The notes under the pieces: generated by a model
The model's input: the letters and a program-made list of their open reading frames with translations, nothing else
Databases searched by the model: none
What the model was told of the DNA's origin: nothing
Shown here: positions 1,471-63,094 of the stretch, piece after piece
Layout of the letters: every line of letters starts with the position of its first letter
Numbering within the stretch: position 1 is the first letter of the stretch
Translations under genes and position numbers: made by a program
From: Octopus vulgaris
Lineage: Eukaryota
Length of the DNA: 64,000 nucleotides
NCBI GenBank assembly: GCA_951406725.2
Contig: OX597816.1
Coordinates: 107,136,001-107,200,000 of the forward strand
Direction: 5' to 3'

Positions 1471-1950
1471 TGGTATGACCACAAATCTGATGGCATCATT
1501 GAAAATAAAAATGCAAAGATCCTATGGAATTTTATGATTCAGTGCAACCATGAGATAGAAATAGGAAGCCAGACATAGTCTTAATTGAGAAAGAAATCAA
1601 ACTATGCTGGATCATAGATATAGCATGCCCAGCTGACAACAAGGTATGCAATAAGGAAGAAAGAAAAGTCGAGAGATATGACAAGTTAACTTGGGAAGTT
1701 AAGCAAATGTGGTCAATGAAAAAGGTAGCAGTAGTACCAATAATTGTTGGAGCCCTGGGAACAGTGAGCAAAAATCTCGAGAAGTACGTGGGCTGCAATA
1801 AGAGTGGAGCACTTGTAGAAAATAGCACTGCTTGGAACCACTCGAATACTCCGGAAGGTGCTCCAAAAATAAGTGGTATTACCTTAGTTCACTTGTAGTG
1901 AACAGCTGACACTGTAGTACATCACCAGTATTAGAAGGTTTGCAAAGGCA
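1471..1950 (+). mobile_element. 3' fragment of an R4/Dong-clade non-LTR retrotransposon (restriction-like endonuclease), inserted in (TAA)n
   Basis: Frameshifted translation gives WYDHK..IENKNAKILW, RKPDIV, IDIACP, K..RY and VVPIIVGALGTV, typical of RLE C-termini. (TAA)n lies on both sides, the known Dong target. Confidence 0.8.
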
Positions 1951-3043: not shown

Positions 3044-5270
3044 TGAAGGTTACGGAGAGGGTCATAGACCTACTAATTAGAGAGAGAGTTAGTTTAGATG
3101 AGATGCAGTTTGGGTTCGTGCCAGGGAAAAGTACCACTGATGCTATATTCCTGGTAAGGCAGCTGCAGGAGAAATACCTAGCCAAAGATAAGTCCCTGTA
3201 CCTGGCTTTCGTTGACATGGAGAAAGCTTTTGATAGGGTCCCCCGATCCCTTATCTGGTGGTCAATGAAGAAACTAGGGATAGATGAATGGCTGGTGAGG
3301 ACTGTGCAAGCCATGTACAGAGATGCCGTAAGTAAGGTTAGGGTTGGCAACATGTACACAGAAGAATTCAAAGTAGAGGTTGGGGTCCACCAGGGTTCAG
3401 TACTCAGCCCCCTCCTATTTATCATAGTACTCCAGGCAATTACGGAGGAATTCAAGACAGGCTGTCCCTGGGAGCTCCTCTACGCTGACGACCTTGCTCT
3501 TATTGCTGAGTCACTATCAGAACTGGAGGAGAAGTTCCAGGTGTGGAAGGAGGGTTTAGAATCGAGGGGCCTTAGAGTCAACCTAGCTAAAACCAAAGTA
3601 CTAATAAGTAGGAAGGTAGACAATCCACAAATGTCTTCAGGAAGATGGCCCTGCTCGATCTGTAGAAAAGGTGTAGGTAGAAACTCTATAAGATGTACCC
3701 AGTGTAAGCTATGGACACATAAGAGGTGCAGCAATGTCAAAGGTAGGCTAACTGGGAAGATAGTTTTTGTATGTGGCAGATGCTCGGGAGCATTAACCTC
3801 CGAAAATCTGCAGAAAACAACTTCCGTCACTTTCCAGGGGGAAAAACTAGAAGTAGTTGATAGCTTCCGTTATCTAGGTGACCAAGTCAGTAGTGGGGGT
3901 GGGTGCGCTGAAAGTGTAACTGCTAGAATAAGAATAGCCTGGGCAAAGTTTAGGGAGCTCTTACCTCTGCTGGTGACTAAAGGCCTCTCGCTCAGAGTAA
4001 AAGGCAGACTGTATGATGCGTGTGTACGAACAGCCATGCTACATGGCAGCGAAACATGGGCCGTGACTGCTGAGGACATGCGTAAGCTCGTGAGGAATGA
4101 AGCCAGTATGCTCCGATGGATGTGTAATGTCAGTGTACACACTCGACAGAGCGTTAGCACCTTGAGAGAAATGTTGTACCTAAGAAGCATCAGTTGTGGT
4201 GTGCAAGAGAGACGATTGCGCTGGTATGGTCATGTGGCGAGAATGGATGAAGATAGGTGTGTGAGAAAGTGCCAATCCCTAGCAGTTGAGGGAACCCGTG
4301 GAAGAGGTAGACCCAGGAAAACCTGGGACGAGGTGGTGAAGCACGACCTTCGAACTTTAGGCCTCACTGAGGAAATGACCAGCGACCGAGACCTTTGGAA
4401 ATATTCTGTACGTGAGAAGACCAGGCAGGACAAGTGAGCCCAGCCCACTTATGAATGCCTTTCCTCCCTTGGACACAAAGACCTGTTGAGGCAAGCGAAG
4501 TCGATATAGAACCTCATCCGACGACAGACACCCATGCCAACCCCCCATGCTTGCGAAGACATGTTGGGGCAAGCGAAATCAAAATCGAAATCGAAACCGA
4601 ATTGAACCAGCCAGGATCCCTGGCCTGGTGGTACGTAAAAAGCACTATCCGACTCGTGGCCGTGGCACGTAAAATACTCCAATGCGACCGTACGACAGGC
4701 ACCCATGCCAACCCCCTTTGCTTGTGTAGACATGTTGGGGCAAGCGAAATCGAAATCGAATTGAACCAGCCAGGATCCCTGGTCTGGTGGTACGTAAAAA
4801 GCACTATCCGACTCGTGGCCGTGGCATGTAAAATATTCCAATGCGACCGTACGACAGGCACCCATGCCAACCCCTTTGCTTGTGAAGACATGTTGGGGCA
4901 AGCGAAATCGAAATCGAATTGAACCAGCCAGGATCCCTGGTCTGGTGGTACGTAAAAAGCACTATCCGACTCGTGGCCGATGCCAGCACTGCCTCGACTG
5001 GCTTCCGTGCCGGTGGCACATAAAATACACCAATCTGACCGTGGCCGTTGGCCAGCCTCGCCTGGCACCTGTGCCAGGTGGCATGTAAAAAGCACCCACT
5101 ACACTCACGGAGTGGTTGGCGTTAGGAAGGGCATCCAGCTGTAGAAACATTGCCAGATTAGACTGGAGCCTGGTGCAGCCTTCTGGCTTCCCAGAACCCC
5201 AGTCGAACCGTCCAACCCATGCTAGCATGGAGAACGGACGTTAAACGATGATGAGGATGATGATGATGAT
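3044..5270 (+). mobile_element. 5'-truncated RTE-clade LINE (copy A): RT with internal PHD-like finger, modular 3' UTR, (GAT)n tail
   Basis: Open frame to the stop at 4437 with QFGF, AFVDMEKAFD, GVHQGSVLSP, LLYADD, FRYLG, RRLRWYGHV and RGRGRPRKTW. Ends in gatgat repeats. The predicted ORF start at 2824 is microsatellite read-through. Confidence 0.95.
4521..4979 (+). repeat. Tandem repeat of ~159 bp x ~2.8 in the copy A 3' UTR
   Basis: Units start with acgacagRcacccatgcc at 4521, 4692 and 4851. They are near identical; the first has extra gaaatc hexamers. Confidence 0.95.
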
Positions 5271-5277
5271 ACATATA

Positions 5278-5490
5278 TACAGGGTATGGTGAATATATTG
5301 TTGTCTGAGTTATACAAAAATGAAAATAACACTAACATCTCATTTTAACAGATATAATTACCAAAATTGCATAAAAATAACTTGAAATACTAAAGAGTAA
5401 ATTTATTCAATAAAATTACCATTGGCTTCAACCATGGCCTCCATACAACTTCAGAATCTCCTGCAACTCTTCTGGACGGTCATCGTACAG
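5278..5490 (-). mobile_element. Probable Tc1/mariner terminal fragment
   Basis: Begins ta|cagggt. The minus strand resembles a transposase C-terminus (VQKSCRRF..MEAMVEANG). Confidence 0.4.
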
Positions 5491-5509
5491 TTTACTTTTC
5501 ACTATAAGC

Positions 5510-6130
5510 GAGAGGCCATTGTCGCCAGCAGAGGCAGGAGCTTTCTGAACTTTGCCCAGGCTATTCTTATTCTTTTCTACTCTAGGCACAAGGCATGAAA
5601 TTTTGGGGGAGGGGGCCAGTGGATTAGATCAACTCAAGTATGCAACTGGTACTTAATTTATTGACTCCGAAAGGATGAAAGGCATAGTTAACCTCAGTGG
5701 AATTTGAACTCAGAACATAAAGACAGATGAAATACCGCTAAGCATTTTGCTTGGCGTGCTAACGTTTCTGCCAGCTCACCGCCTTCCAGGTTACTCTTAT
5801 TCTAGCAGCTATGCCCTCTGAGGATCTACTCCCACCACAAACTTGGTCACCTAGGTAGTGGAAGCTATCAACTACTTCTAGTTTTTCCCCCTGGCATGTG
5901 ATGGAATATGTTTTCTGTAAATCTGTGCCTTATTGCCCCCTGTGCATCTGCCACATACAAAAACTATCTTCCCAATTAACCTTCCTTTGATATTAGTGCA
6001 CCTCTTATGTGTCCATAGCTTACTCTGGGTACATTTTACAGAGTTTCTACCTACGCCTCTTCTACAGATCGAGCAGGGTCATTTACCTGAAGGGCATTCT
6101 GATTTGTCTGCCTTCCTACTTACTAGGACT
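5510..6130 (-). mobile_element. Decayed third copy of the PHD-containing RTE LINE, interrupted by a SINE
   Basis: The minus strand matches the SGKWPCSICR..WTHKRC..VCGRC..LEVVDSF region. The SINE at ~5575-5785 is flanked by an imperfect duplication ccaggYtaYtcttattct. Confidence 0.85.
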
Positions 6131-6684
6131 TTAAATAATATAAATGTAAAATAAGTAAATAACAGAAGTAAAATATCCAATTATGAGATATATAAAAAAA
6201 ATCTAAATACATATACATTCATAGTCATTTACGTATAATTAAAAATAAAACCATACAAAACCTAAATTAATCAGTTAATGCCCAATTCTATATGTTTACT
6301 TGTATTTAATTAGAAATATAGTGAAAATAAAATTAAAATAAATTTTTGAATATTCTAATTTATTTACATTTATCCTAGCTGGTTTCACAACATCTTAATA
6401 ATGATGAATATTACCAAAATAATTGCATTCATAGTAACTCAATTTACGAGTTATATAAAGATAACTACATTAAGTAAACAAAGGTGGATAGTCTCAATTT
6501 AAATAACAGTTAACTTACAACTGTTACCAGTGAATGCATTATGTATTTTTAGTCACTTGATCTTTACTAAGCTACTCTCTGCTGTTTCTGCATACTGGGT
6601 TAATATAGAAAAATATTCTTGAAACCTTTTAATCCATTTGCACTTTCTTTTTATATCACATTGACTTACATTATGAATAGTTAT

Positions 6685-10244: not shown

Positions 10245-10291
<47 letters not shown>

Positions 10292-11892
10292 CCATCCCCT
10301 TTTAGTACCCTCCCGCCTCGTAATATCCTACGTTTTTATTTCTTACGAACCTACACCAACCCTTCCTGCCATCGTTCCTCCTTACCCCAACCTTCCCCAC
10401 TGGTTGCTCCCCTATATTACCCGCCTCAACTGGACCCCCCCTCCCCAACTCAACTCTAGAATATCTGTATTTCTTTCCTCTACCTAATTACGTTACTCAG
10501 TGACGATAACGAATGTCCACTGCTAACACCAGCTCCTGCCCACGGCGTGGTCAAGTTGGAAGAGAGATCAAAAGAAAAATACCACGAAAACTATCACCAC
10601 CACAACAACCCTCCTCTTCTCAGGCGCCGAATCCCCCCGTCCCCCCCACATCTCCTTCCCAGTTTTCAGAGTTGGCACTATCAATGTTGGTACATTGACA
10701 GGCAAGTCTAGTGAGATTGTAGAGATGCTAGAGAGAAGACAGGTTGATGTATGCTGCATACAAGAGGTAAGATGGAGAGATGCTTCGGCTAGGGTCCTCA
10801 CGGGCAAGGCACTTAGGTACAAACTCTACTGGCAAGGTAACGCGGAAGGTGTAGGGGGTGTAGGCATTCTCCTTGCGGAGGAATGGGTGGATAAGGTCAT
10901 AGAGGTTGTCAGGGTTTGTGATAGAGTGCTTAAGCTCAGGTTGGTCCTACAGAGTGGCACAGCTATGATTATCTCAGCCTATGCCCCACAAGCGGGACTA
11001 CCAAATGATCAGGACAGGACAACTTTTATGATACCCTTCTGCAGGCTACTTCAAAGACTAGTAACAAGGACCTCATCTTTGTAGGTGGAGATTTTAATGG
11101 GCATGTTGGGCGGGAATCGGGTATCTTCACTGGGGTACATGGTGGCTATGGTATTGGCACCAGAAATGATGAGGGAACTAGACTGCTGGAATTCTGTGAT
11201 GCATGTAACCTTTCAATCTGCAACACTAACTTCAAGAAGCCAGTCTGCCACCTTATAACTTATCAGTCAGGAGACTCCGCTAGCCAAATAGACTTCATCC
11301 TCACCAGACAACGGGATGCAGGGTTGCTCTTGAATACAAAGACCCTCCCGGGTGAAGAATGTATCCCTCAGCATAGACTAATCATCAGTGACTTTAAGCT
11401 TGAGGCCAGAAGGACTCCAAGAAACAAACCAATCCAGAAAAGAAGGATTTAGAGGCTAAAGAACCCTTCGCATGGTCAGAAATTTAGGGACATACTCATC
11501 AAGAAATTTGATGAGAGGGAGGAGGAGCTTCAGACGTCAGACATAGAAGGTAGCTGGGAATTCCTACGGGACAGCTTGTTGAGTGCCACAGACCAAGTCT
11601 GTGGATTGTGCAAAGTCCCTTCCAGACCTAGAATTACGTGGTGGTGGAATAGTGCAGTAGATAAAGCCATCTGTGAAAAGAGACGGGCCTGGAAAGCCTG
11701 GAAGGAATGGGGGCAGCAGGGAACTGTACCAGATAGCCAAAAGGGAGGCTGGGCGGCAGGTATACATTGCCAAAGATGTAGCAGAAAAGAAGAAGTTTGC
11801 CAATGTCCAGCGTCGCGAGGATCAAAGAGCTGAAGTATTTCGGATTGCCAGACAGTGTGTCAGAGAAAATAGCGATGTTATAGGAGAGAAAT

Positions 11893-13818
11893 GTGTCCGC
11901 ATGGATGATGGGGCACTTGCTTTTTACTACTAGTGAAAAGAAAGAGGCTTGGAGAAGCCATTATGAAAGACTGCTGAATGAGGAGAATGAATGGGAGGAG
12001 GAGAGCCTGCCAAATGTTGACCCAGTAGAGGGACCAGCTACCCGAATAGACAGCTCCCTTGTAGATAAGGCAATTAAGGATATGAAACCAGGCAAAGCCC
12101 CTGGCCTATCAGGAATCACTGCTGAGATGCTTAAAACAGCTGGCTATGTGGGCTATGCCATAGTCACCCGCATTGTAAACCAGGTGGTTCACAATGGAGT
12201 CATACCCAATGACTGGTGCAGCAGCACCATAGTCAACTGCTACAAGGGTAAGGGTGATGCTCTAGATAGAAATAACTACAGAGGTATCAAACTGTTGGAC
12301 CAGGTGATGAAGGTCTCAGAGAAGGTCATAACCAATCTCATTAGGGAGAGAATTTGTTTAGATGAAATGCAGTTCGGTTTTGTACCAGGTAGAAGCACCA
12401 CTGATGCTATATTCCTGGTCCGACAACTGCAGGAGAAGTACCTAGCTAAAGATAAACCCCTCTACATAGCTTTTGTAGACTTGGAGAAAGCCTTTGACAG
12501 GGTTCCCCGTTCCCTTATCTGGTGGTCGATGCGGAAACTGGAGATTGAAGAATGGCTAATAAGGGCTGTACAGGCTCTATACAGAGAGGCTGTCAGCAAG
12601 GTTAGGATTGGCAACGAATATAGTGAAGAATTCCGGGTAGAAGTAGGTGTGCACCAGGGCTCAGCCCTCAGTCCCCTTTTATTCATCATAGTCCTTCAGG
12701 CAATAACAGAGGAATTCAAAACGGGATGCCCCTGGGAGCTCCTCTATGCCGATGACCTAGCTCTCATAGCAGAATCACTACCGGAACTAGAAGAGAAATT
12801 TCGGGTGTGGAAGCAAGGGTTGGAATCAAAGGGCCTTAGAATAAATGTAGCAAAGACCAAAGTATTAGTAAGCAGCAAGAGGTACTCAGCACACATCCCC
12901 TCGGGTAGGTGGCCCTGCTCAACCTGTAGGAAAGGTACAGGTAGAAACTCCATAAGATGCACCCAATGTAAGTTATGGACACATAAGAGGTGCAGCAACA
13001 TTAAAGGGAAATTAACAGATAAGATAGCTTTCATGTGCGGCAGATGCACAGGGACAATAGACACAACAGACACTCAGAAAACAGATTCCATCACACTCCA
13101 GGGAGAGAAACTAGAAGTAGTTGATAGTTTCCGCTACCTGGGTGACCAAGTTAGTAGCGGAGGTGGATGCACAGAGAGTATCACCACTAGAATACGAATA
13201 GCCTGGGCAAAGTTCAGAAAGCTCCTACCCCTACTGGCAACAAAAGGTCTCTCCCTCAGAGCAAAAGGTAGATTGTATGATGCATGTGTGCGAACTGCCA
13301 TGCTTCACGGTAATGAAACATGGGCTGTGACTGCAGAAGACATGCGTAGACTTGAAAGAAATGAAGCTAGCATGATCCGCTGGATGTGTAGTGTCAGTGT
13401 GCACGCAAAACAGAGTGTAAGTATCCTGAGAGAAATGCTGGATATAAGAAGCATCAGATGTGGTGTGCAAGAGCGACGCTTGCGATGGTATGGTCATGTG
13501 CTGCGGATGGATGAAGAGAGATGTGTGAAGAAGTGCCACTCCCAAACAGTTGAAGGTATCAGGGGGAGAGGTAGACCCAGGAAGACATGGGATGAGGTGG
13601 TCAAGCATGACCTCAGAGCATTGGGCCTCACTGAGGCAATGGCGAAGGACCGAGATCTCTGGAGATATGCTGTGACTACAAAGACCCGGGCTGCTTTCTG
13701 CAGCAATTCCACATACCCCCTACCCATTCTAAGTACCCCGGATCCCCAAAGTACCCTGGATCCCCAAAGTACTCCGATCCCCAAAGTACCCCGGACCTCG
13801 TTGCCCCCGTGCCGCTGA
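11893..13818 (+). CDS. Reverse transcriptase portion of RTE ORF (641 aa open segment) with C4HC3 finger
   Basis: GKAPG, NYRGIKLL, QFGF, DLEKAFD, GVHQGSALSP, YADD, then CSTC-CTQC-HKRC-CGRC, then FRYLG and the RTE C-terminal RRLRWYGHV. Confidence 0.9.
   Translation: MSAWMMGHLLFTTSEKKEAWRSHYERLLNEENEWEEESLPNVDPVEGPATRIDSSLVDKAIKDMKPGKAPGLSGITAEMLKTAGYVGYAIVTRIVNQVVHNGVIPNDWCSSTIVNCYKGKGDALDRNNYRGIKLLDQVMKVSEKVITNLIRERICLDEMQFGFVPGRSTTDAIFLVRQLQEKYLAKDKPLYIAFVDLEKAFDRVPRSLIWWSMRKLEIEEWLIRAVQALYREAVSKVRIGNEYSEEFRVEVGVHQGSALSPLLFIIVLQAITEEFKTGCPWELLYADDLALIAESLPELEEKFRVWKQGLESKGLRINVAKTKVLVSSKRYSAHIPSGRWPCSTCRKGTGRNSIRCTQCKLWTHKRCSNIKGKLTDKIAFMCGRCTGTIDTTDTQKTDSITLQGEKLEVVDSFRYLGDQVSSGGGCTESITTRIRIAWAKFRKLLPLLATKGLSLRAKGRLYDACVRTAMLHGNETWAVTAEDMRRLERNEASMIRWMCSVSVHAKQSVSILREMLDIRSIRCGVQERRLRWYGHVLRMDEERCVKKCHSQTVEGIRGRGRPRKTWDEVVKHDLRALGLTEAMAKDRDLWRYAVTTKTRAAFCSNSTYPLPILSTPDPQSTLDPQSTPIPKVPRTSLPPCR
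13731..13797 (+). repeat. 17-18 bp minisatellite x ~4 (aagtaccccggatcccca) extending the copy B ORF
   Basis: Directly visible. Translates as STPDPQ STLDPQ STPIPK. Confidence 0.85.
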
Positions 13819-14068
13819 CACGTTAAAATGCTCGAACCGATCGTGACGATGCTGGACCCTCCGGCCCCTGTGCAGGTGGCACGTAAAAAGCACCCAATCC
13901 ACTCACGGAGTGGTTGGCGTTAGGAAGGGCATCCAGCCGTAGAAACTCTGCCAGATTCAGACTGGAGCCTGGAGCGGCCCCTGGCTTCCCAGACCCGGTC
14001 GAACCGTCCAACCCGTGCTAGCGCGGAAAGCGGACGTTAAATGATGATGATGATGATGATGATATATA

Positions 14069-14260: not shown

Positions 14261-17175
14261 TATTTCAGTATTATGTGTTAAAAGTGAAACAAAAACGTTT
14301 CTCTATTTTATGTCAGATACTTTCACTTTAACAATAAAAATAATAATAACAATTGAATTATATGTAGTAAGTAATAATTAAAATCAAACTAAAGTATAAT
14401 ATAATCGTAACATAACAAAAGTAAAAATAGCAATTGGTATAAAATTGCATCAATGACTTGAACTTGAATAAGTGGTTTCACATGAATGGGAATAAATTAA
14501 AAATAAAATTAGTATGCAGAAATAGAATAGTCCAGATGGATAATAAAAAATTAAATTAAAGAAAAGACTATTGTCTATAAAGTATACAATGTAGAGAAAA
14601 AAGAAGATTTGAACGCATGGAGGAAAGCACCTTCGAAAAGTATCTTGGTGTGACTATGAAAGATATCTAATCAGAGGCGGTAAGTTCGCCACAATAGAAG
14701 CAAGGTTCGAGTCAACGGAGCGTGCAAGGGAGTACTTGACTCAAACTTGCAAAGTGGAAATATTTTATTTTTACCTTTATATCTGGGACATAGGATGTCC
14801 CGGAAAAAAATTTTAAATGCCCCCCACCCCCCACCCCAGAAGTAGAGGTAGGCTGGATTGTACCAACACTTCTATACAAGAGGGAGGACAAGATACAATT
14901 GATTGAAATTACAAGAGACGGGCTAACAATTCCAGTCTGTTATATATTTTGAGTATTGTTATCACTAGCGATATCAAGATATAACTTTGTATTTTGTATT
15001 TTATGTGTAGATGTATATATATAGATGTACATGTGATATGTACACATATATATACATGCACTAGCACTATGACTCGGCCACGACGGGTCTTTAATGCTAG
15101 TATACATATATGTATATATATATATATCATCGTCGTCATCATCATCATCTTTTAATGTCCATTTTCCGTGCAGGCAAGGGATGGATGGTTTTACTAGAGC
15201 TGGCAAGCTGGAGAGTTGTACCAGGTTCCAGTTTGATTTAGCCTGGTTTCTACAGGTTGATGCCCTTCTAATGCCAACCACTTTACAGTGTGTACTGAGT
15301 GCTTTTATGTGGCACAGGCACAAGAGCTTTTTACATGGCACTAGCACAGGACTCTTGTAGGCCAGTCCTCTTCCCCGGGGGAGTGGCCTTAACACTTCTA
15401 CTGTGGCGGACTTGTCTTCTTGTGTGCATTTATTTGTATTTACATATATGTATAGAAGGAGGAGGGCCCCTTTGGTCATAAATGATCATGGGATTGTATG
15501 TGAAAGTTCCTCTCCGAGGTACAAGTCCGGGAAAGGTTGTTTATGGAGAGCCAGCAGTTGCCCATGCATAGCAGCCTCTCCTCTCCATGCTCCATGCCAC
15601 CAATGTCATTCAGGAGAAAGGCAAAGGCTGATACAGTTTGGCTCTTGTGACATCGCAACTCATTTCTACAGCTGAGTGAACTGGAGCAATGTGATATAAA
15701 GCGACTTGCTCAAGAACACAACAGAGAGCTCTGTTCAGGAATCAAACTCAATACCTCATGATTGTGAGTCCAATGCTCTAACCACTGATGTATGTATGTA
15801 TACATCTAACCAGAAGAGAGAAAGAAAAAATACTAATTTTATGTCTCAAGATATTCATAGTTATGTATGCATAGGCACAGGTGTGGCTGTGTGGTAAAAA
15901 GCTTGCTTCCCAACCACATAGTTCTGGGTTCAGTCCCACTGTGTGGCACCTTTGGCAAGTGTCTTCTAGTATAGCCTCGGGCTGACCAAAGCCTTGTGAG
16001 TGGATTTGTTAAACTGAAAGAATCCTGTTGTGCATGTGTGTGTGTATATATATATATATGTATGTATTTATGTGTGTCTTTGTCCCCGTAACCTAGCAGT
16101 TCAGCAAAAGAGACTGGTAGAATAAATACTAGGCTTACAAAGATTAAGTCCTAGCGTCGATTTCTTTGACTAAAGGTAGTGCTCCAGTATGGCTGGTTTC
16201 AAATGACTGAAATGTGTAAAAAAGCATATATATGTGTAAGAGTAAATACCTTATCATCATCATTGTCATCACTTTCTTTTTACATCAATAGGTTTTCTTG
16301 CTCAGTCTAGTAATAGCATTTCTTGTATTTATTACCTTTCTATTGCAAATTTTTCTGTTGTTGTTCACATGTTAGCATAAACTGGAATCACATCCCAAAT
16401 CAATTATCTCCTTGGTTACTGCATAAGTTAGTAAGGTCAAGTTTATCTTGGTCAACTTTGATTCACCTGATATTTCCTGGCCTCTTATCTTTTATATGGC
16501 ATTTAATATTATCATTACTTTTTCTTTTGATTATCAAGGTTTTATTGTCTAATCTCAGAATGGCTGAATAATTAAGTAATTCACTTTGAAACCACAAGAT
16601 CTTGGGTTCAATCTCAATGTGTGATATTTTGAGCATAAGCCATTTTCTCAAACTTGAGTCAATTAATACCTTGTGAGTGAAATTAGGAAGACACAAATTA
16701 CATAGTAGACTTTCAGGTAGCTTGCACCTGAATTTCAAAATATACAACCTTGTCACATCTGTGGCATACTGATTTGTTTGGAGAACTATGTTTACCTTTT
16801 TATTGGAGGAAGCAGATATATCTGCTCAAAATTTCATTACCCTTAGCTGTGGAAAGCAGTTTTATATTCCAATATACTTTTTGTTGCAGAATGTCATATT
16901 TGAAATTGTTTTCTGTTGAAATATGTCCAACCCTTTCATTACCATATTTTTCTACTTTCGTACACTACTTTAGTTTCAATAAATTTTGAAAATAATGAAG
17001 AATTATAGGTGCAGGCATTGCTGTGCGGTTTCCTAACCACATAGTTCCAGGTTCAGTTCCACTACATGACACTTTGGACAAGTGTCTTCTGTTATAGCCT
17101 CAGGCTAACCAAAGCTTTGTGTATAAAGCAATAACAGCAGCAGCAATGAAATGGCGTGTGCACACACACACACAG

Positions 17176-19857: not shown

Positions 19858-20125
19858 ATCATCATCATCATCATCATCATCATTTAACGTCTGTTTTCCA
19901 TGCTAGCATGGATTGGACAGTTTGACCGGCGTCTGGTAAGCCAGGAGGCTGCGCCAGGCTCCAATCTGATCTGATAGTGTTTCTACAGCTGGATGCCCTT
20001 CCTAACGCCAACCACTCCATGAGTGTAGTGGGTGCTTTTTATGTGCCACCGGCACAGGAGCCAGAGGAGGCTGGCAAACGGCCACAGTCGGTTGGTGCTT
20101 TTTATGTGTCACTGACAATCAGGCA
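19858..20125 (-). mobile_element. RTE 3'-tail fragment (very short 5'-truncated copy)
   Basis: Reverse complement of the 5040-5270 tail. Related pieces at 15127-15350(-), 52030-52500(+), 52565-52660(-) and 56590-56925(+). Confidence 0.85.
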
Positions 20126-24997: not shown

Positions 24998-26240
24998 GAG
25001 GGGCGTTCAATAAGTAATGCCCCTGACCCACTTCCCATAGCAGTAGAGCAACGACACTTGGCACAGTTATTAGTCTTTTCCTACATAGGAACCACCCAGA
25101 GTTATGCATTTCTCCCATCGTTTGATACAGCTCTGGAGACCGTTTTTGTAGAAGACCCCAGCTTGGTCCTCCAACCACGACGTGACTTCAGAAATCAAGG
25201 CTGCATCATTTGGGAAACGCTTTCCTTTCAAAATCAACTTCATGGCTGGGAAGAGGTGAAAATCAGAGGGTGCAAGGGGAGGAGCTCATAGCTGCACGCC
25301 TGTGCTTCTGATCTGGCGACACGCGAGTTGTGGACCGGAGCGTTGTCCTGCAGGGGGAGGATGCCTTTGCTGATCTTGCCCCGCCTCTTGATTTTGATAG
25401 CTTCTCTTAATTTCCTCAAAAGTGAAGCATAATAGGCTCCTGTAATTGTGGTACCCTTTGCCAGGAAATCTGTCATCACTACTCCGTCCTGGTCCCAGAA
25501 GACTGTGAGCATAACCTTGTCAGCGGAGGGCTGCACCCTTGCCTTCTTTGGAGGAGGTGAGTCACGGTGCTTTCACTGCATTGACTGGGCTTTGGTCTAT
25601 GGTCTGTGTGATCAGTCTTTTGAAAAATTTTGACTCATCTTCTTGGCACATCTCCAAATTCATCCTCGAGCACTCAACGCGTTCTTGCTTCTAGAAAGGT
25701 GTGAGCAACCTGGAAATCCATCTGGCAGACACCTTTTGCATATGCAAATGGTCATGAATGATAGTTTCCACAGACCCGGTACTAATCTTGACCTTATGGG
25801 CTATTTGGCGAATAGTTATGCGTTGACCTTCCAAAATGGCAGCCTCAACTTGACGGACAGACATCTCATCAACGGCAGAAGGGGGCGACCAGATCTGGGA
25901 GCTGTTTCCACAGAGTTCCGACTATGTTTGAATTCACAATGCCAGCGTTTTACAAGGTCATATGATGGGGCATCATCACCATAAGTTACTTTCATTTCAT
26001 CAAAAGTCTCCCGTGGTGTGCGTCCTTTCAAATACAAAAACCAGATCACTGCTCGACACTCAACAGGCTCCATTTCACACTTGACTCAGTTCAAACACCT
26101 GTAAATCAGAAACCACAATTAGTTCAGAGCTGTAATTCGCCACTTAATCTATAGAGGTATAAATAAGTGCACATGCAAAATTTCAGCTAGATCAAACAAC
26201 TGCAAGTGGGTCAGGGGCATTACTTATTGAACGCCCCTCG
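24997..26240 (-). mobile_element. Mariner transposon, TIR to TIR, transposase disrupted
   Basis: 37-bp perfect TIRs (cgaggggcgttcaataagtaatgcccctgacccactt) with TA flanks inside (TA)n. Transposase fragments MEPVECRAVI..PRSGRP, KVMLTVFWD and QDNAPVH. Confidence 0.95.
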
Positions 26241-30122: not shown

Positions 30123-31080
30123 CGAGGGGTGTTCATTGAAGATTTTCTCCTGACCCAGTTCTCAAGGACTGGGATAAACGAAACTTGGCATAATTATTAG
30201 TTCTCCTCTACATAGCCACTACCAATAGTGATACACTTCTGTCACTTTATGCAGCTGTGAAGACTTCGTCTTCATCATCATCATCACCCGAAAAGTGCTT
30301 CTACTTAAAAAAAAGACTTCATTGTTGGAAAGAGGTGGAGTAAGGGGGATGAGGAAGGATTTCTTAGCCGCAGAAGTGTGCTGTCATCTGGGCAACATGC
30401 GCATAGTGAACTGGGGCGTTGTCTTAGAGGAGGCGGACTCCTTTGGTCAGCATGCTACGCCTCTCTACTTTGATGGCGTCCCGCAATTTCTGAAACAAAG
30501 AAGCATAATATGTCCCGTGTATTGTGGTGCCCGTTGCCAGAAAATTCATCATCACTACTCCACGCTGGTCCCAAAAGATTGAGCATCACCTTGCCTGCTG
30601 AGGGTTGGACACAAGCCTTCTTTGGAGGTGGTGAGTTATCATGCTTCCATTTACTTCGTCTGAACTTTAGTCTCAGGATCATAGTGATGGACCCATGTTT
30701 CATCCTGTGTGATGAATCAGCCGAAATAGTCCTCCTCGTTTTCTTAGCTCATTGCCAAAAGAGCCTGGGTGTAATTGACTCGTTCCTGCTCGAGCATCTG
30801 GAAAATCCATCGTGCAGACAACTTCCGCATGTGAAAATAGTCGTGAATGATTTTTTCCCACGGACCCTACATTTTTCTTCATTTCTTGGGCTAGTTACCG
30901 AATATTTATGCAGCGACCTTCAAAAATAGCGGCTTTCACTTTATGGATGGTGTCGTCATCAATGGCGGAATGTGGTCGTCCAGTTTCCACCGATGTCTGA
31001 CCACATTTGAACTGGCGATACCAGTGCTTGACTACGTCGTATCATGTTGCATCGTCACCATAAACTTCTTTCATCTGATC
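30123..31080 (-). mobile_element. Third mariner relic, truncated at its 5' end
   Basis: TIR ta|cgagggggtgttca. Relics EVYGDDA, ITQDETWVHHYDPE and PPPKKACVQPSAGKVM. Confidence 0.85.
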
Positions 31081-51467: not shown

Positions 51468-53289
51468 GTAAGATATGAATGAAAACAAGTTCTTTATGAT
51501 ATTTTTTTCATGTCATTTGTATTAAAATTTTTCTTGTCAGTTTTGCTCTAGGTCAACCATGCTTGTGTAGATGTTGTTGCTGTTGTTTTATCCTAGCTCA
51601 ACTTTCATTGAAAGAGATTTATATCCGAAGTTTTTCCTGCTGTAACACTCCCAATCTTTTTTTTTAACTTTTTACCCATAGTATATTTAGGATCACTGAG
51701 GTGTGGCAGTGGTTGTGTGTGTGTGTGTGTGTGGATTTTTCTTTATAAGTACATGATTTTGAGTTCTACCTCACTGCATGATACTCTGAATAAATGTTTT
51801 TTACTAGACTCTTTGGATCAACTAAACCGTAGTAAAGAAATACATACATTGGAGAATGTCATTGAAGATATGTAATACTTAGAAAAAAAAAAAATGGATG
51901 ATCATAGCTGGAATGTGTAAACCAGTGGTTCTTAAGCATTTTTTTGCAGCCCCACTGTTGTTATTCTTAGCACCCACCTATGTGGTGAGTGAGGTATCAC
52001 AACTGAACTAACATACCTGTACAGAAGCTTGTTGTGGTGAGAAAGGATCTTCAGACATTGGGCTTCACAGACGGAATGACAAGAGACCATGACTCTGGCA
52101 GTTTGCTTTGCTTGAGAAGACATGTCAGGCTAAGTAAAATCATGGTTGTCCTGGCATACAAGCATGTCCCTGCATCCCTCTTCAACTGAGTGATCCTAAT
52201 CTTGTGGGTTCTTGGCTGCTGGCGCCACATAAAAGTCACCAGTACCAGTACCATGTAAAAGCACTCATGCTGGTGCTGTATAAAGGCATCCTGTACATGC
52301 TGTAGAGTGGTTGGCATTAGGAAGGGCATCCAGCCATAGAAACCATGCTAAAACAGACATGGAAACCAGGCAGCACTTCAGCTGGCCAGCTTCTGTCAAA
52401 CAGTCCCACCCATGCCAGCATGGAAAATGAACATCAAATGATGATGATGATAATGATTATGATGATGATAATTATTATTATTATTATGATGATGATGATG
52501 ATATATATATATATTATATATTCTTTTTTGGAATGATGAATCTTGAAGCTAATAAAGCTATAAATCATCATCATCATCATCATCTAATATTCGCTTTCCA
52601 TGCTGACATGGGTTGGACAGTTTGAACAGGAGCTAGTGAGGCTGGGAGCTGTACCAGGTCATTTTATGACCAACATCTGGTCATAAAATGATGCCTCTGA
52701 ATAAGTCTCTATCCAACCCATGCCTGCAAATAAAAAAATGACTGAGTGAATAAACAAATGTTTAGGAATACATTATTTAGTCTGTCCTCTCTATTTATGT
52801 TGGGAATGTATAGTTTCAGGGAAATTTAACTGGCATTTCTAGCTGGTGAAGTGACTGCATATAGTTTCCATTGTTCACTTGTTGCTAGAGCAGATGTAAG
52901 TGTGCTGATGTATAAGCTAATAACTTGGTTGTTGTTCTGGCAAAACCACTTATATTTATTGGTTGCTGTTGATCCTTGGAACATTCAGCTTTCAGGTGTC
53001 AATAAGTGTGTGCTGGTTGAGCAATGAGGTTAATATAATTGATAAATCTACTCCCTCAAAATTCTTATTCTGGTAACTAATTAATGGTGACTAGCAGAAT
53101 TGTCAAGGCAAAAGGAAAAAGCTTTGTTCTACATTTTCAAGTGAAATCCTGTTGAGGTTAACTTTGTCTTTCATCCACCTGTCAAGTGGCTGATAAAATA
53201 AATAAGTCAAATACAGGATTTTATTAATAGGCTGTTCCCTAATGCCTACATTTATAGCTTTATGTTACAAGGCTTTATTATTACATATC

Positions 53290-53460
53290 TATCTATCTAT
53301 CTATGGAAGCTCCTCGTGTTTGAAGATCATGAGAAAGAGCAGGAAGTTCTTAAATGATAATGTAAACCAATCCTTGAATAAAAGGCTTTAGTGCATTTCT
53401 GGCATGTTAAGTTAGGAATTGTGACAATAGCTTTTCTTTCTTTTGGCATCAAAAAAGTAA
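53290..53460 (-). mobile_element. 3' end of a different RTE-type LINE with terminal C2H2 finger
   Basis: LTCQKCTKAFYSRIGLHYHLR, stop, short UTR, (atag)n tail. Confidence 0.7.
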
Positions 53461-53737
53461 TCTACACACACACACACACATGCTTGCATGCACACGTGCA
53501 TGCGCACACATAAGATGAAGTTTGTCTATTTGCTATAGAAAATCAATGAGTTGAATTTATATATTAAAAAATAAACTTCATAATAACCAGTTCTTTACAA
53601 TGAAATTAACAAAACTATTTAGTTATTTGCACAGTATTTAATTATGATATTTAATTTTGAAATTGAAATTAATGATTAATGTTTACAGTGTACATTACAA
53701 AATGTAAATATCTGATATAGGAAGAGATTAAACTTAC

Positions 53738-53759
53738 CTCTCTTGGAGTTCATAACTAC
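53738..53759 (-). CDS. Candidate 22-nt exon (GSYELQER or VVMNSKR)
   Basis: tgttctttttaaag acceptor and gag|gtaagt donor in AT-rich unique sequence. Confidence 0.45.
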
Positions 53760-55776
53760 CTTTAAAAAGAACATAAACATGATGGTGTGATTTTGGCAGT
53801 TTTAGACAGACAATTTAGTTAGAAATTAATTTTAAAAAAATTATTTAATTTAAACAATATTGTTGAGTGGCTGTGTGGTGAGTAGCTTGCTAACCAACCA
53901 CACGGTTGCGGGTTCAGTCCCACTGCGTGGCATCTTGGGCAAGTGTCTTCTGCTATAGCCCCGGGCCGACCAATGCCTTGTGAGTGGATTTGGTAGACGG
54001 AAACTGAAAGAAGCCTGTCGTATATATGTATATATATATATGTATGCGTGTGTTTGTGTGTCTGTGTTTGTCCCTCTAGCATTGCTTGACAACCGATGCT
54101 GGTGTGTTTAGGTCCCCGTCACTTAGCAGTTCGGCAAAAAGAGACCGATAGAATAAGTACTAAAAGGTGGTGCTCCAGCATGGCCGCAGTCAAATGACTG
54201 AAACAAGTAAAAGAGTAAAAGAGTATACCTTTTTGAAAAAAAATGTTCTTTTTATGCTTTCTAAGTGACAATATACTGCCCCCCACCCCACGATACAGTT
54301 TATTGATCAAAATGAAGTTGCTACTTATCCCATGGAGTTTCTAAATTCTTTGGAATTTTCAGGATTGTTTGCTCTTGGAGCTTCTATAATACTTTACTGA
54401 AATTTATTTCAGCCTAATTTTGAGGGAAGGAGTAAGTCAATTACATCAACCCTAGTACTTGACTGGTACTTATTTTACTGATCTTGAAAGGATGACAGGC
54501 AAAGTTGTTGATCTTGGTGGAATTTGAACCTGGAATGTAAATTCAGACAAAACGCCACTAAGCATTTTGTCTGGTGTGCTAATGATTCTGCCAGCTTGCT
54601 GCCTCCATGATAACTAAAATGATAATAAAGGCATTATAGCTTCTTGTCATTGAAACTCAAATTCAAACTGGTTGTAACCACAAAGATAATTTTATTACTT
54701 ATGATAAAACAGCGATACCATTTCAGTTTAAGTGCTTACAATTTCCAGTAAAATTATATTTTGCTCTAGTTCTATAGCATTCAAATTACATTGTCAAATG
54801 TAATAAGCATTACATTCGACAATATAATGTTGAACGTAATGCTTCTTAATTAGTGATTCACATTGTTTTGAATAAATCATGCATTATCTTGTAGCTTCGT
54901 GATTTCAATGATTATTTGTTTATTATTAAAATAACATAGTGTGGGAGGCCAAATCTGACCACCAATTTTAATATTAAAACAAGTAGAGTATTTGAGCCAG
55001 ATATGGTTGGTTTATATGTTAAAAGGTCAGAGTTGGAATGGCTAAAAATCTTTACATCTATTCCTCTTAGAGAAACCATGCAGTGTTACAATTTCAAATG
55101 AATTTTTGTTTAAATGTTTGTTGGTTTCTCCCTTCCTAACTTTGGTTTAGTTGCTGAATAATGTACTCTTTTACTCTTTTACTTGTTTCAGTCATTTGAC
55201 TGTGGCCATGCTGGAGCACCGCCTTTAGTTGAGCAAATCAACCCCAGGACTTATTCTTTGTAAGCCTAGTACTTACTCTATCAGTCTCTTTTGCCGAACC
55301 GCTAAGTTACGGGAACATAAACACACCAGCATCGGTTGTCAAGCGATGTTGGGGAGATAAACACAAACGCAGAAACATATACACACACACGTACACATAT
55401 ATATACATATACATATATACGATGGGCTTCTTTCTGTTTCCATCTACCAAATCCACTCACAAAGCTTTGGTTGGCCCGTGGCTATAGTAGAAGACACTTG
55501 TCCAAGGTGCCACGCAGTGGGACTGAACCCTGAACCATGTTGTTCGTAAGCAAGCTACTTACCACACAGCCATTCCTACACCTAAAAAGTATTATAAGAT
55601 TTCAATTTTGCTGATCTACTTTTTCACCTGTGCAATGTGCGGTTACTCAGCATTCACATGCACAGACATGTATGTATGTATGTATTTATGTATGCATGTA
55701 TGTATGTGGTGTGTGTATGGGTGTATGTATGTGTGTGTATGTATGTATATATGTATACATATATACATATATATAA

Positions 55777-55813
<37 letters not shown>

Positions 55814-56547
55814 TACACACATATATATATATATTAATAATTAAGGGTACTAACAGGCAGTATTAGCATGCTGACATAGCAGTCAAAATGATCAAACCAC
55901 AAGTTTTCATTTAAACACAAAGGTGAAAGTGGGCAAATGAATAGAAAAAATCCTAAGACCGCCATACCAATGATGAAAATAATTGAAAATTGAAGTCAGA
56001 CATAAACTCCACTCACTCCTCCATTCCATCACACCCGATGCCACTACCCCAAATCCTTCCCTTACCCCTCTCCCTCCCTGATACGCTCCTCCCACCCTCA
56101 TTATATAAAGTGAGTTACCATCAACATTTACTTTTAAAAATCATGAAATTGTGAAACCAGTTAAGTTAGTAGAAATAAATCTTTTAAAAGACTCCAAGTG
56201 CATTTTCAACTTCATTTATTTATGTGTGTATGTGTGTGCGTGTGTATGAATGTTCCCTGATGAAGGACACATGTACATCATATGCACATTTGAGTAAGGA
56301 AGAGATGCACCAGCTGGTGCATCCCTCTGTCATAATATGCCTTGCATTTTTTCTAGCTCTCAACACTGTGAGTTCAAATTCCATTGAGACTATCTTTAGC
56401 TTTCATTCGTCTAAATATCAATAAAGTACCAGTTAAATACTGGGATTGATAGTATCAGCTAATTCCTCCCCCTCAAAATTAGAGACATTGTTCCTAAATT
56501 AGAAACAGTTATTATTTCATCTCATATATGTTTGGTTATTTTCTTAC

Positions 56548-56582
56548 CGGATGAAAGTTCCTAATACTTTTGCAACCCATCT
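56548..56582 (-). CDS. Weak candidate exon (RWVAKVLGTFIR or EMGCKSIRNFHP)
   Basis: Good cg|gtaaga donor. The ttacag acceptor has a poor pyrimidine tract. Confidence 0.2.
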
Positions 56583-56934
56583 CTGTAATGTCTTCAAATC
56601 ATTGCTCTTGTGCCAAATGAAACTGAACTTTAAGGAGATGACAGAGGACTGAGATATATGGCACCTTGCTGTATTCAAGAAGACCTGCCCACCTCTTTGA
56701 GATCCTAAAACCAACATTGGGATCCTAAAACCAAGGTACCTCATAAAAAGCATTGATATGGGTGCTGGTGCCTCACAAAAAGCACTGGGTCTAGTGCCAC
56801 ATAAAAAGCACTGTGATGGTGCCACATAAAATGCACTGGTGATGGTTCCACATGAAAAGCGTCTTGTACACTCTGTAAAATGGTTGGCATTAGGAAGGAC
56901 ATCCAGGTGTAGAAACCAAGTCAAAACAACTTTT

Positions 56935-57127
56935 CTTTTTTCTAGGCAGGGGTGTTTGCCCTAAGCAAACCCATTTTCACCTCTGGAAAGAGATGGCCCT
57001 TATTCATCTGGCCACTATCCTTTGATCCATCCAGTGTGGAATCCCCACCTGCTACCTGGAGCTTGTGCTCCACTGGCATAGCTCGCAAGGTCACTGAGAT
57101 ATGCAAGTCATCACACCATAATGAGGA
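56935..57127 (-). mobile_element. RTE/BovB-like 5' UTR fragment
   Basis: Minus strand cttgcatatctcagtgaccttgcgagctatgccagtgg...aaaggatagtggccagatgaa resembles RTE 5' ends as recalled; not database-checked. Confidence 0.5.
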
Positions 57128-58113
57128 CTGGATCTTGTGGATTTGCTCCTCTTACTAACTGTAGCATTTTAAAGTGTTTGGTCCTTATTTCTAGTTTCAT
57201 GGCTGCCTGATAGAGGAATGGACAATAAACTATCTTCAATGACTTTCCCAGATTACATTGCTGAGGCATGTTGAATTTAATATACTGTCAAGTGAATTTG
57301 AACTCAAGACCTTTCTGTTGGTAGCTGAATATCATACCAAATAAGTTTACTTTCTATCGTCCTTGAAAACTGTTCTCAGTTACTGACCTTGGAAACATGG
57401 CTGAATTCATCAATATATTTATGTACAGGCTCTACAGGGCAGCATGGACTTCAATCAGAAAGCCTTTTTGATCAGTACATCCAAGACTTGAGTCCTGCAA
57501 GATTGCTAATGGCACTAAATTCACTGCTACTACTACTGTCAACATCACAGCTTCCACTACAGCCACCACCCCTACCATTGACTGGCACAATGACAACGAT
57601 GATGATGACAACAATCACCACCACCATCACTACCACTAATACCACCATTGCCACCAGTACCACCACAACCAATGCTGCTACCATCACTGCTATCACCACC
57701 ACCAGCACAACCTCCATCACCATTATCATCACCACTACCATTACCATTATTACTACAGCAGCACCACTACTATTACCACAACCATCATTAACAAAGCTAC
57801 CATTGTCACCACAATTATAACCACCACCACCATCACCACCAACATCACTATTGTCTCCATCACCTACACACTATAACCATAAGTATTGCTACTGCTTTAG
57901 TTATTTGGCAACATATAAGTACCAATATCTATTTTACAATTTTATTTCACAAACATAGATATAGAACAAGAAACTATTTTCTTCATTGATCTCTTAACTC
58001 TGTTTCATTTTGAGTTTTTTTTTCTAAGGGTAATCAATGGAAGTATATTGATTGATAGAAGTTAGATGACATTTGTTATGATTCAGTGTATGCTGCTATT
58101 ATTATTGTTGTTG

Positions 58114-58156
<43 letters not shown>

Positions 58157-58650
58157 GAGAGAGCAGTGCATGCCATCAAAGTGATACTGGGGTAAAATAT
58201 TCGAAGCCCAGTATAGCCATCATGACTACCCGTATGTGTGCAACATGGTGATCTCATATCAAGATAAACAGCAAATGACCTTGCAGGTGGGGCCCGGTTA
58301 GAATTTTCTTCAGGTCGAGTAACCTATCCTGCTCAAAAGGCCCCTGAATAAAGGTTGTTTAAGGATGTTGAATGAAACACCCATGCTTCCAGAGGTGAAT
58401 TATTCAACTCCCAAAGAATTCCTCTGATCATATTGCTATGATGCTCCCCCACTATTTCTGCTTGTGATCAGAGATGCACATATCGTCAGTCACAAAAGGA
58501 CATGTTCTACTGGTTATGGTCAAACAACTGTGGTATTGAGCAGAATATTTGCTGTAGCCCATCTTTTATACCAAGACAAAACAATTTAAATGATAACACT
58601 TCCAATCAGTTAAGATGAGAAGCCATGAAAGCCACTTCATCAGGGCATTT
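58157..58650. mobile_element. ~490 bp element embedded in (TTA)n, possibly Dong-related
   Basis: Sharp boundaries with TTA repeats on both sides; no ORF. Confidence 0.5.
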
Positions 58651-60031
58651 ATCATTATTATTATTATTATTATTATTGTTATTATTATTATTGTTATTAT
58701 TTTGGTGGCGAGCTGGCAGAAACGTTAGCATGCCGGGCAAAATGTGTAGCCATATTTCGCCTGCCGTTGCGTTCTAAGTTCAGATTCCGCCGAGGTTGAC
58801 TTTGCCTTTCATCCTTTCGGGGTTGATAAATTAAGTACCAGTTACGCACTGGGGTCGATATAATTGATTCAATCCATTTGTCTGTCCTTGTTTGTCCTCT
58901 CTGTGTTTAGCCCCTTGTGGGCAATAAAGAAATAAGAATCATTAACACATTGAGTATAATGCTTAGTGGCATTTCATCGGTCTTTACATTCTGAGTTCCA
59001 ATTCTGCTAAGGTTGATTTTGCTTTTTATCTTTTTGAGGTTGATAAGATAAGTACCAGTCAAGTACTGGAGTCGATGAAAATGACTAGCCTCCTCCCCTA
59101 ACATTTTAGGCCTTGTGCCTATAGTAGAAAGGATTATTATTATTATTATTAAGAGAGCAAGTTGGCAGAATTGTTAGTACACTGAGAAAATGCTTAGCAG
59201 CATAAAATAAGCAAGAATTGAACACTGGGCTTGATGTAATCTATTAGCCCCATCCCTGCAAATTTTGTGCCTTGTGCCTATAGTAGAAAGGATCATTTTT
59301 TTTTTTTTATTAAGACAGTGGGCTGGCAGAATCATTAGCACACTGGAGAAAATGCTGCCCATCTTTGTGCTCTGAGTTCAAATTCCACCAAAGTCAGCTT
59401 TGTCTTTCGTCCTTTTATGGTTGATAAAATAAGTACCAGTTGAATACTGGGGTTGATGCAATCAACTAAAGCTTTCCCCGCTAATTCTTGATCTTATTAG
59501 AATTATTACTTTGGCCTAGTAGTAGAAAGAATTATTACTTTGGCCTACTGGTTAGGATGTTGCACTCACAATTGTGAGATCATGGTTTCAATCCGTTGAT
59601 CAGATGGTACTAGCATAGTTAGAGTGTGTGTTACCAAGAGCGGCCCTTCTGTTTGCTGCCCCCTCACAAAAAGCACATATTGCCTACAGTAGACCTAAAA
59701 GTGCTGCCAAGAGTGGACTGCCCCTATAGTCGCCCCCCCCCACTAGCTATGCTAGTGCCGATTTGTTTGTTGTTCTTGAGCAAAACACTTCATCTCACAT
59801 TGCTCTGAGATCACTTCTACACCTGATATGTGACACACAGTGCACCTGTTCAACCAGCGTCGATTTGATGGAAGGAGTGAGCTAATGTACAGCACATACA
59901 TTTGATCACTATGAACAAATCATTTGTGCAGGTCATTCAGCAAAAAAAGCTGAACACTCATATGTTGTCTTCAATGGGAAAGTCCATCATTATTATTAGC
60001 ATCATCATTTTGATGTAACCATTTCACTTAC

Positions 60032-60109
60032 CTGAGTGGCTTTATGCTTACCAATGTCTCTCATCCATTGAGGGAAACCATAATTGTTGATGTTATTATA
60101 TTTGTGTTT
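60032..60109 (-). CDS. Candidate exon KHKYNNINNYGFPQWMRDIG(KHKATQ) with two alternative donors
   Basis: tgcag acceptor and a single open frame. Donors tg|gtaagc (exon ends 60052, phase 1) and ag|gtaagt (ends 60032, phase 0). Confidence 0.5.
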
Positions 60110-62421: not shown

Positions 62422-62770
62422 GGTTTCCTTTCATTATAACTTTATTTCAGCTGTCTTAGTACTAGGCATCCTCTGGAGTAGCAAGGGCACTTTTGTTTTG
62501 CTATGCATGCTAAAATTATCACCACATTTATTCCATTTTAGATGGAGAGTGCTTTCAATAATATATGGCTTTTACTCATCAAGGTTATCTTTTGTAGTTC
62601 ACAGAAACTGGAGTTACCAGGGAGTTGCTTAATATACTTTTCAGGTCCCTTCTTTATCATTCCCAACACACCAATTATTATTATTATTATTATGTTTTTT
62701 CCTTCTTTCTTCAAATTTTCTTCTGTTTCTCGCCGAGTGTTTTCCATACACCTAGGGCAGAGAAGCTCAT
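62422..62770 (-). mobile_element. Second R4/Dong-like RLE 3' fragment
   Basis: IIIGVLGMIKKGPEKYIKQLPG..ELQKITL..HILLKAL, followed by (TAA)n. Confidence 0.7.
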
Positions 62771-63094
62771 TGTATGCATCTTTTCAGAGCCATTAAAAAT
62801 AAAGTACTGGTTACAAACTGTGGTTGACATGTTAAACCAGGTTAAAAACCTGTGTGTAAAATCTTGTGGAAACTTTCCACAGTGTTAAACCAAACCTAAA
62901 CCAGCCCAAATTTGTAACTTATTGTCATGGAATATTATCAGATAGGCTAATATAGTAAATGTAGCTCAAAAACTTAGATTTTAAATGGAAATTATGGTGG
63001 TGATGGTGGTGGTCTTGTCTTATGAGCCCAATTGCTTTATACAGCCGTGTATACTACATGTTAGAAAATTATTATGCTGTTGTGATAATGATCA

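Follow-up and report, generated by a model that had tools for sequence, protein, structure and literature searches.

Octopus vulgaris carries an RTE-clade LINE lineage with a PHD-like zinc finger embedded in the reverse transcriptase (RT), and this finger likely helps to choose where copies land. The finger-bearing lineage itself is real, old, conserved, and widespread. In the window that we analyzed (64,000 nucleotides of assembly GCA_951406725.2, contig OX597816.1, positions 107,136,001 to 107,200,000), it is represented by copies A and B, a decayed third copy, and short repeats sharing its tail (Table 1). We credit the finger with a part in landing-site choice because copies of the family pile up in CpG-poor DNA and those of two finger-less LINE families do not; these control LINEs also differ in endonuclease, tail, and age, so the link between finger and bias is correlational. 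In its broadest form, our reading is that an ancient pan-animal LINE lineage steers target-primed reverse transcription (TPRT), and partner short repeats with it, into the bodies of methylated housekeeping genes through a reader grafted into the target-facing loop of its RT, a synthesis that we hold tentatively and at slightly below even chances.

Table 1 Features of the LINE family and of a control element in the window.
Feature	Position	Strand	Remarks
RTE LINE copy B	10290..14063	+	5'-truncated, young subfamily; 97-99.6% identical to other genomic copies
APE endonuclease domain of copy B	10677..11344	+	Pfam PF03372 and PF14529; split across two frames
RT core of copy B to motif 6	12268..12864	+	Pfam PF00078, E 4.5e-30
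YADD of copy B RT	near 12745-12756	+	
NVAKTKV (motif 6), copy B	12844-12864	+	
Motif 6-7 loop, copy B	12865..13101	+	~64-residue insert, in which a variable linker flanks the finger on either side
C4HC3 finger (predicted PHD), copy B	12916..13047	+	Pocket: W (12910-12912), T, S, W (12976-12978)
FRYLG (motif 7), copy B	13129..13143	+	Thumb and C-terminal region follow
AT-hook-like GRGRPRK near C-terminus, copy B	13561..13587	+	Weak: Pfam PF02178 E 0.07, below cut-off
3' UTR and (GAT)7 tail, copy B	13819..14063	+	ATATAT after tail
(AT)n run at copy B 5' junction (target microsatellite)	10248..10289	.	
RTE copy A, second young subfamily	3044..5264	+	5'-truncated; 79% nucleotide identity with copy B
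Finger of copy A (predicted PHD)	3652..3783	+	All eight ligands present
Decayed third copy	5481..6132	-	Finger at 5944-6075: stop and one ligand lost
Short repeat with the LINE family's 3' tail	19864..20067	-	Likewise 15133-15322 and 52305-52457; all in CpG-poor window segments
C-terminal endonuclease of an element that we take to be R4/Dong-type	1554-1898	+	Abundant, used as control; without Pfam match

A zinc finger within the reverse transcriptase

The architecture of the element (APE endonuclease and RT, 5' truncations, a repeat tail, and no integrase), together with its motifs, places it in the RTE clade. The reading frame of copy B is broken upstream of 11884, with 3 gaps relative to an intact copy. 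Elsewhere in the genome, the single-ORF organization proposed in the initial annotation was borne out: of 20 copies selected because their frames are long, all 20 encode endonuclease, RT, and finger in one frame of 1050–1130 codons from stop to stop. No ORF1 was evident by eye in the DNA upstream of the LINE ORF, which consists of tandem monomers. In longer copies this 5' region comprises ~300-bp monomers and shorter 20–40-bp repeats in variable number, and in several the true 5' end was not reached; the monomers are reminiscent of the monomer promoters of rodent L1. At the other end, 44 of 46 distinct loci have a ~220-bp UTR and then (GAT)n, and the final ~200 bp of copy B are common to short dispersed repeats, which we infer to be moved by this LINE's protein. 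The genome holds two young subfamilies, A and B, with about 23,000 candidates in an initial survey and 52 places identical to copy B across 103 aa. Tandem repeats have expanded the 3' UTR of copy A (4455-5100), and subfamily A copies differ in the length of their UTR. Where the ORF ends, a minisatellite (13700-13800, also in intact copies) yields a variable Pro/Ser/Thr-rich protein tail. Other parts of the window include fragments that we take to be from a mariner transposase (25240-25572 and 30455-30748 (-)), and Rfam gave no match within positions 1-21000.

The finger follows the pattern C-x2-C-x10-C-x2-C-x4-H-x2-C-x14-C-x2-C, with a Trp two residues before the His, and is in frame with the RT. 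Only two matches to this pattern emerged from a six-frame scan of the window, one being the C4HC3 finger first proposed in copy B and the other its counterpart in copy A, where all eight ligands are kept as had been claimed. The third copy was also said to span this region, and it does so in decayed form, with a stop immediately ahead of the first Cys and the fourth Cys changed to Ser. Against Pfam PF00628 (PHD), the isolated insert scored 27.6 bits, above the cut-off of 24, and the same domain scored within the 585-aa protein reached 21.2 bits, below it. Among 119 non-redundant finger-bearing relatives, drawn from 191 with the insert and chosen for having it, 118 keep all eight ligands. The score of the isolated insert and this retention argue that the finger is not a chance pattern.

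Structure prediction agrees with the fold that had been proposed from the letters alone. A model of the finger by itself (pLDDT 77) retrieved PHDs as top Foldseek matches, with probabilities of 0.9–0.99 but E values of 0.05 or worse, and in VIA its best match had Z 4.8 and rmsd 2.2 across 48 residues, nearly all listed rows being PHDs; these scores are modest, and the domain is small. A model of RT, finger, and thumb (mean pLDDT 86; 78–93 over the finger) matched R2 and L1 RTs at Z 19–20 and rmsd of about 4 across about 400 residues. In these models the finger is predicted to fold as a cross-brace, two-zinc PHD that leaves the RT intact. An Atlas search returned PHD clusters only, some with RVT_1. 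We rejected a C1-domain reading, for which the Pfam matches were weaker and spanned half of the finger.

The finger lies between NVAKTKV and FRYLG, which we take to be RT motifs 6 and 7, a placement checked against R2Bm; the initial annotation had the finger between the right landmarks but wrongly placed NVAKTKV in the motif 7 region. The span from motif 6 to motif 7 is about 100 aa with the finger versus 35–40 aa in finger-less relatives, in keeping with the short linker that had been presumed normal at this site. Aligned to R2Bm, the profile of the finger family extends as far as residue 668, the start of the insert, and the finger-less profile continues through to 715. The 6a loop of R2Bm (residues 672–677, between motifs 6 and 7) is described as reading upstream target bases and as needed for nicking (PMC10499050), and vertebrate R2s are described as using theirs likewise (PMC11601368). 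By alignment, then, the finger appears to occupy the 6a site of R2, and its mapping onto that loop suggests that it faces the incoming target duplex.

Age and constraint

A query comprising RT and finger gave 2327 matches; among the 120 listed, taken together with copies A and B, 114 of 122 fit the finger pattern, and the other 8 include 2 with a long linker failing the pattern and 6 that could not be parsed. Named carriers are Hydractinia, Branchiostoma, Mercenaria, Octopus (including an O. vulgaris protein, 73% identical), and one nematode record. With cnidarian, bivalve, and amphioxus relatives carrying the finger, the insert is pan-animal and not octopus-specific. When long proteins were searched with the RT core only, the 120 matches listed included 70 with the finger and 40 with a short linker (mostly catfish, with 36 aa), along with 7 irregular gene models and 3 unparsed rows. 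The same kind of query against cluster representatives (150 listed, 133 reaching motif 6, counted where motif 7 was readable) found 10 with the finger and 4 without at an identity of at least 47%, versus 4 with and 80 without below 47%.

A quick tree of 57 RT cores from relatives that are unnamed or automatically named, without Repbase references (insert excluded, one short row dropped), needed 2 finger gain or loss changes versus 17.7 in shuffles. All 35 finger-bearers fell in one group (SH-aLRT 91) that also includes 4 finger-less rows, consistent with a single ancient gain and a single loss. The four RTs lacking the finger inside this group (P0259, P0263, P0266, and P0369) are probable cases of loss, suggesting that the finger is dispensable in some lineages. 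Another relative, P0267, has lost most of the finger in frame. Three family proteins (P0005, P0042, and P0240) are labelled as bacterial MAG genes (Herbaspirillum, Thiodiazotropha, and Terriglobia) and are probably animal DNA in bins. A search of this genome for a finger-less sister family found none, returning apparent finger-family copies, several at known coordinates.

Between subfamilies A and B, the finger has a dN/dS of 0.071 (95% bootstrap interval 0.018–0.217), its non-ligand residues 0.094, and the RT core 0.059, versus 0.45 and 0.83 (wide intervals) for the two short flanking linkers. The ligands are thus constrained, as the initial annotation had anticipated, and the finger is a conserved module on loose tethers, under purifying selection.

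Its surface suggests what it might bind. The best PDB matches were Pygo PHDs (E 3.6e-7), and the top single-sequence match was PHF13. In Pygo, the methyl-lysine pocket is described as comprising Y341, W366, D352, V350, and A356, with E360 required for binding (PMC2726290); PHF13 is reported to require F241, M246, W255, and E248 (PMC4915813). Equivalents of Pygo Y341, V350, A356, and W366 (an aromatic residue, Val/Thr, Ser/Ala, and Trp) occur together in 95 of 119 relatives, and the pocket Trp is kept in 98% of finger-bearing relatives. The Met of the PHF13/ING-type cage is Ser/Ala in this family, and the acid beside the third Cys (Pygo E360, PHF13 E248) occurs in 5/119 and 4/119 relatives at two positions, hence in at most 9/119; loop 1 carries an acid in 10/119. 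The pocket is therefore conserved, whereas the canonical grammar for H3K4 is not kept. A complex prediction pairing the finger with the unmodified H3 tail scored 0.13 (mark 0.34) and is not counted here for or against binding.

The finger is also strongly basic, with a mean net charge of +7 among relatives (+11 in copy B) and conserved HKK/HKR and further basic residues. This raises the possibility, which we consider unlikely though the most serious competitor, that it is a nucleic-acid grip steadying target DNA or template RNA, with any compartment bias due to a different part of the protein or to transcribed chromatin being passively accessible. The charge, the loss of the acids for H3 binding, and an insertion site that contacts DNA in R2 all suit such a grip, and DNA-binding PHDs are known (BAZ1A, PMC5636791; Hop1, PMC10907721). 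A near-invariant Trp and an aromatic/Val/small-residue pocket nevertheless exceed what a charge patch needs, and PHF13, a true H3K4me2/3 reader, is likewise basic in the aligned stretch.

Where copies insert

Octopus DNA falls into two CpG classes: among 40 arbitrary 10-kb loci, CpG o/e was bimodal (14 at 0.21–0.45 and 26 at 0.67–1.0) at the same GC. We classed 4-kb 3' flanks of young copies in this one genome as low when their CpG o/e was under 0.55, a measure that is a proxy for past methylation and not a chromatin map. Low flanks made up 30/40 for subfamily B (27/37 with a parsed tail) and 13/20 for subfamily A, compared with 12/40 arbitrary sites and, for finger-less LINEs, 13/40 for RTE-2_OV and 11/40 for Dong/R4-type elements (B vs arbitrary, p = 1e-4; B vs Dong, 4e-5; A vs arbitrary, 0.013). 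The neutral Dong result came from 4-kb flanks and a different query than our first Dong control, which used 1.1-kb flanks of elements chosen by likeness to the window copy and was intermediate (13/28 low vs 22/37 for B, p = 0.33). By this proxy, insertions are not chromatin-neutral. Of the four outcomes that the initial annotation had named as refuting its idea, three were examined and none of them occurred: neutral insertion, a fold other than PHD (by prediction), and unconstrained ligands. The subfamily B bias held at cut-offs of 0.5 and 0.6, and a quarter to a third of young A and B copies lie in CpG-rich DNA. Selecting the most identical copies should, if anything, favor unmethylated sites. 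We dropped the element's own low CpG o/e (0.32–0.46 vs 0.63–0.67 in RTE-2_OV) as support, since a piece of the neutral Dong element had 0.31.

Counts of family tails give a similar picture. In the 40 arbitrary loci, 20 of 23 tails (3 in high loci) and 7/7 ORF pieces were in low loci; of two further locus sets not chosen for the family, one had 6 tails in low versus 0 in high loci, and the other, the Dong flanks, showed a weak excess (2 in 11 low loci vs 3 in 29 high). Summed, about 28 tails lay in 232 kb of low DNA and 6 in 504 kb of high DNA. Overall, the excess of family copies in CpG-depleted DNA is roughly 7- to 10-fold. Three other short repeats were neutral (16/53, 19/68, and 15/59 low; 25–30%). 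Flanks of deubiquitinase exons (after removal of one overlapping locus; some loci are from a shared gene) were low in 25/29 cases and held 12 family tails in 82 kb, versus 1/30 low and 0 tails in 85 kb for homeobox flanks, which are also poor in two of the three control short repeats. The window itself has sharp CpG o/e domains (~0.3–0.5 over 1-24000, ~0.7–1.1 over 24000-48000, and ~0.2–0.3 over 52000-64000), and every family copy and tail is within the low ones. The low class holds exons of housekeeping genes and not homeobox genes, in line with a description of octopus 5mC as lying within the bodies of genes with broad expression and, for the most part, outside transposons (PMC9476566).

A preference for low-CpG DNA could also arise after insertion, if copies landed neutrally and were later kept in methylated introns, or brought methylation and CpG loss to their flanks. 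Our data consist of fixed genomic copies only, and intergenic repeats are described as slightly more methylated than other intergenic DNA (PMC9476566), both of which would suit this explanation. It is improbable, in our judgment: the signal survives masking of family DNA (27/39) and persists in repeat-free DNA (rho -0.52), retention should have skewed the other LINEs and short repeats too, yet these are neutral, and copies with about 1% divergence have not had time to deplete CpG across 4 kb. Neutrality of RTE-2_OV and Dong likewise argues against passive access to transcribed chromatin, the source of bias invoked with a basic grip, which should have affected both.

The flanks also bear on the kind of mark that might be read. 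Because the closest solved structures (Pygo, PHF13, ING, and TAF3) are H3K4me2/3 readers and the pocket Trp is kept, the finger could be taken for a canonical H3K4me3 reader that sends insertions to active promoters. We find this very improbable, given a cage Met replaced by Ser/Ala, the missing acid, and flanks that are the opposite of unmethylated promoters (subfamily B median CpG o/e 0.44, 0/37 above 0.88, GC at background). Of the initial proposal of targeting guided by a chromatin mark, the non-neutral insertion stands, and reading of H3K4me3 at promoters is disfavored by the CpG-poor location of copies and by the rarity of the Pygo E360/PHF13 E248 acid.

Within their compartment, copies favor (AT)n. 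At least two further AT units followed the (GAT)n tail in 32/44 copies (2 loci had no parsed tail) and in 21/37 of an independent set (3 unparsed), relative to an arbitrary-DNA background of 1.8% for AT units after GAT; about 10/18 truncated 5' junctions, read by eye, adjoined AT runs. The junction signal was weaker in subfamily A, and slippage may lengthen some (AT)n runs. Since matching of tail to target is known in RTEs without this finger (PMC6007223), RTE-2_OV itself has AT units after the tail in 4/22 cases, and the AT-hook-like motif is another candidate, we do not credit the (AT)n preference to the finger. Nor can this local preference cause the compartment bias, as (AT)n runs are rarer in low-CpG DNA (24 vs 40 per 10 kb).

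A model for target choice

We propose that the finger anchors the enzyme to chromatin in gene bodies that are constitutively transcribed and DNA-methylated, a correlational reading to which we assign about an even chance. The loop between motifs 6 and 7 would face the incoming target duplex, as R2 6a does, and the pocket (aromatic/Val/Ser-Ala/Trp) would engage a methylated lysine on the nucleosomes of gene bodies. Both H3K36me and H3K4me1/2 are associated with gene bodies, and our guess at the ligand is one of these and not canonical promoter H3K4me3. The basic face of the finger would hold DNA while the endonuclease nicks a nearby (AT)n run, and pairing of the (GAT)n RNA tail with the nicked (AT)n would prime reverse transcription. 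Targeting would then be two-tiered, the compartment being set by the finger and the site by endonuclease and tail.

This model touches on how LINEs without site specificity choose a compartment and on the role of PHD fingers encoded by retrotransposons. Here the putative reader sits in the catalytic protein itself, at a loop that touches target DNA in R2, in a family that is young, abundant, and skewed relative to controls from the same genome. If correct, the model would explain how tens of thousands of copies came to fill octopus housekeeping introns, and would provide a LINE counterpart of chromovirus targeting that is built into the polymerase. It would further imply that the motif 6–7 loop tolerates a folded targeting domain, a property relevant to the engineering of LINE-based gene-insertion tools. 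The compartment bias measured against same-genome controls turns an earlier speculation into a testable claim and shifts it from promoters to gene bodies.

Comparison with known systems

In the literature that we searched, which did not extend to Repbase Reports and most subscription papers, we found no prior report of an RTE RT with an internal PHD or zinc finger, and no report on gene-body preference of LINEs that points to a finger-guided case; the accessible portions of PMC9004415, PMC3597677, and PMC7617806 do not mention the insert. As the RVT_1 and PHD architecture is visible in automatic annotations, the insert may nevertheless be catalogued. The initial annotation had supposed that zinc-finger RTEs of octopus might already be so; RTE-2_OV, the zinc-finger octopus element in the literature, is a separate family that lacks this finger. 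Identity with RTE-2_OV (PMC9115989) was rejected, as one of the primers given there has no match in the window even with 3 mismatches allowed. Another primer, published for O. vulgaris, is exact at 89 places belonging to a separate family whose linker is short and whose tail is (ATT)n. Four RTE-2_OV fragments lie head to tail, about 1.4 kb apart, at G000:C1:94322633-94326800. Additional file 10 of PMC9115989 includes a row in which RTE8BF6, a polymorphic element of O. bimaculoides, shows an (AT)n target duplication; this element may belong to the present lineage.

Other RTE LINEs (from the catfish Hemibagrus, ~42% identical; plant-type; and RTE-2_OV) have the same single ORF with APE and RT and a microsatellite 3' tail, and RTE-clade tails are described as matching target bases (PMC6007223), as here. 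They differ in having a 35–40-residue motif 6–7 linker in place of the finger, and RTE-2_OV is compartment-neutral whereas the finger family is biased to CpG-poor DNA. The R2 6a loop (R2Bm, 8gh6; R2Tg; R2Pm) is likewise an insertion between motifs 6 and 7 used in target recognition. It is, however, a six-residue loop reading rDNA bases in an RLE element, in contrast to a ~45-residue two-zinc domain with variable linkers in an APE element with dispersed targets.

As fingers, the nearest counterparts are the PHDs of Pygopus and PHF13, which share with it the C4HC3 fold (predicted here) and the hydrophobic portion of the methyl-lysine pocket. The octopus finger has no equivalents of Pygo D352/E360 or PHF13 M246/E248, its loop 1 is shorter, and it is basic rather than acidic (PHF13 being basic in the aligned stretch). 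The PHDs of CR1/L2 LINEs are similarly LINE-encoded but are placed in ORF1 or N-terminally in either ORF2 or a single ORF, and the available part of PMC4120745 describes none inside the RT. Chromoviruses and CopiaMBD elements, in which a reader guides insertion (spider CopiaMBDs are described as accumulating in methylated gene bodies; PMC6673714), offer an analogy, that of a retrotransposon-borne epigenome reader associated with biased insertion. The element described here is not a member of either group: theirs are LTR elements in which the reader adjoins the integrase, and ours is a non-LTR element that inserts by TPRT.
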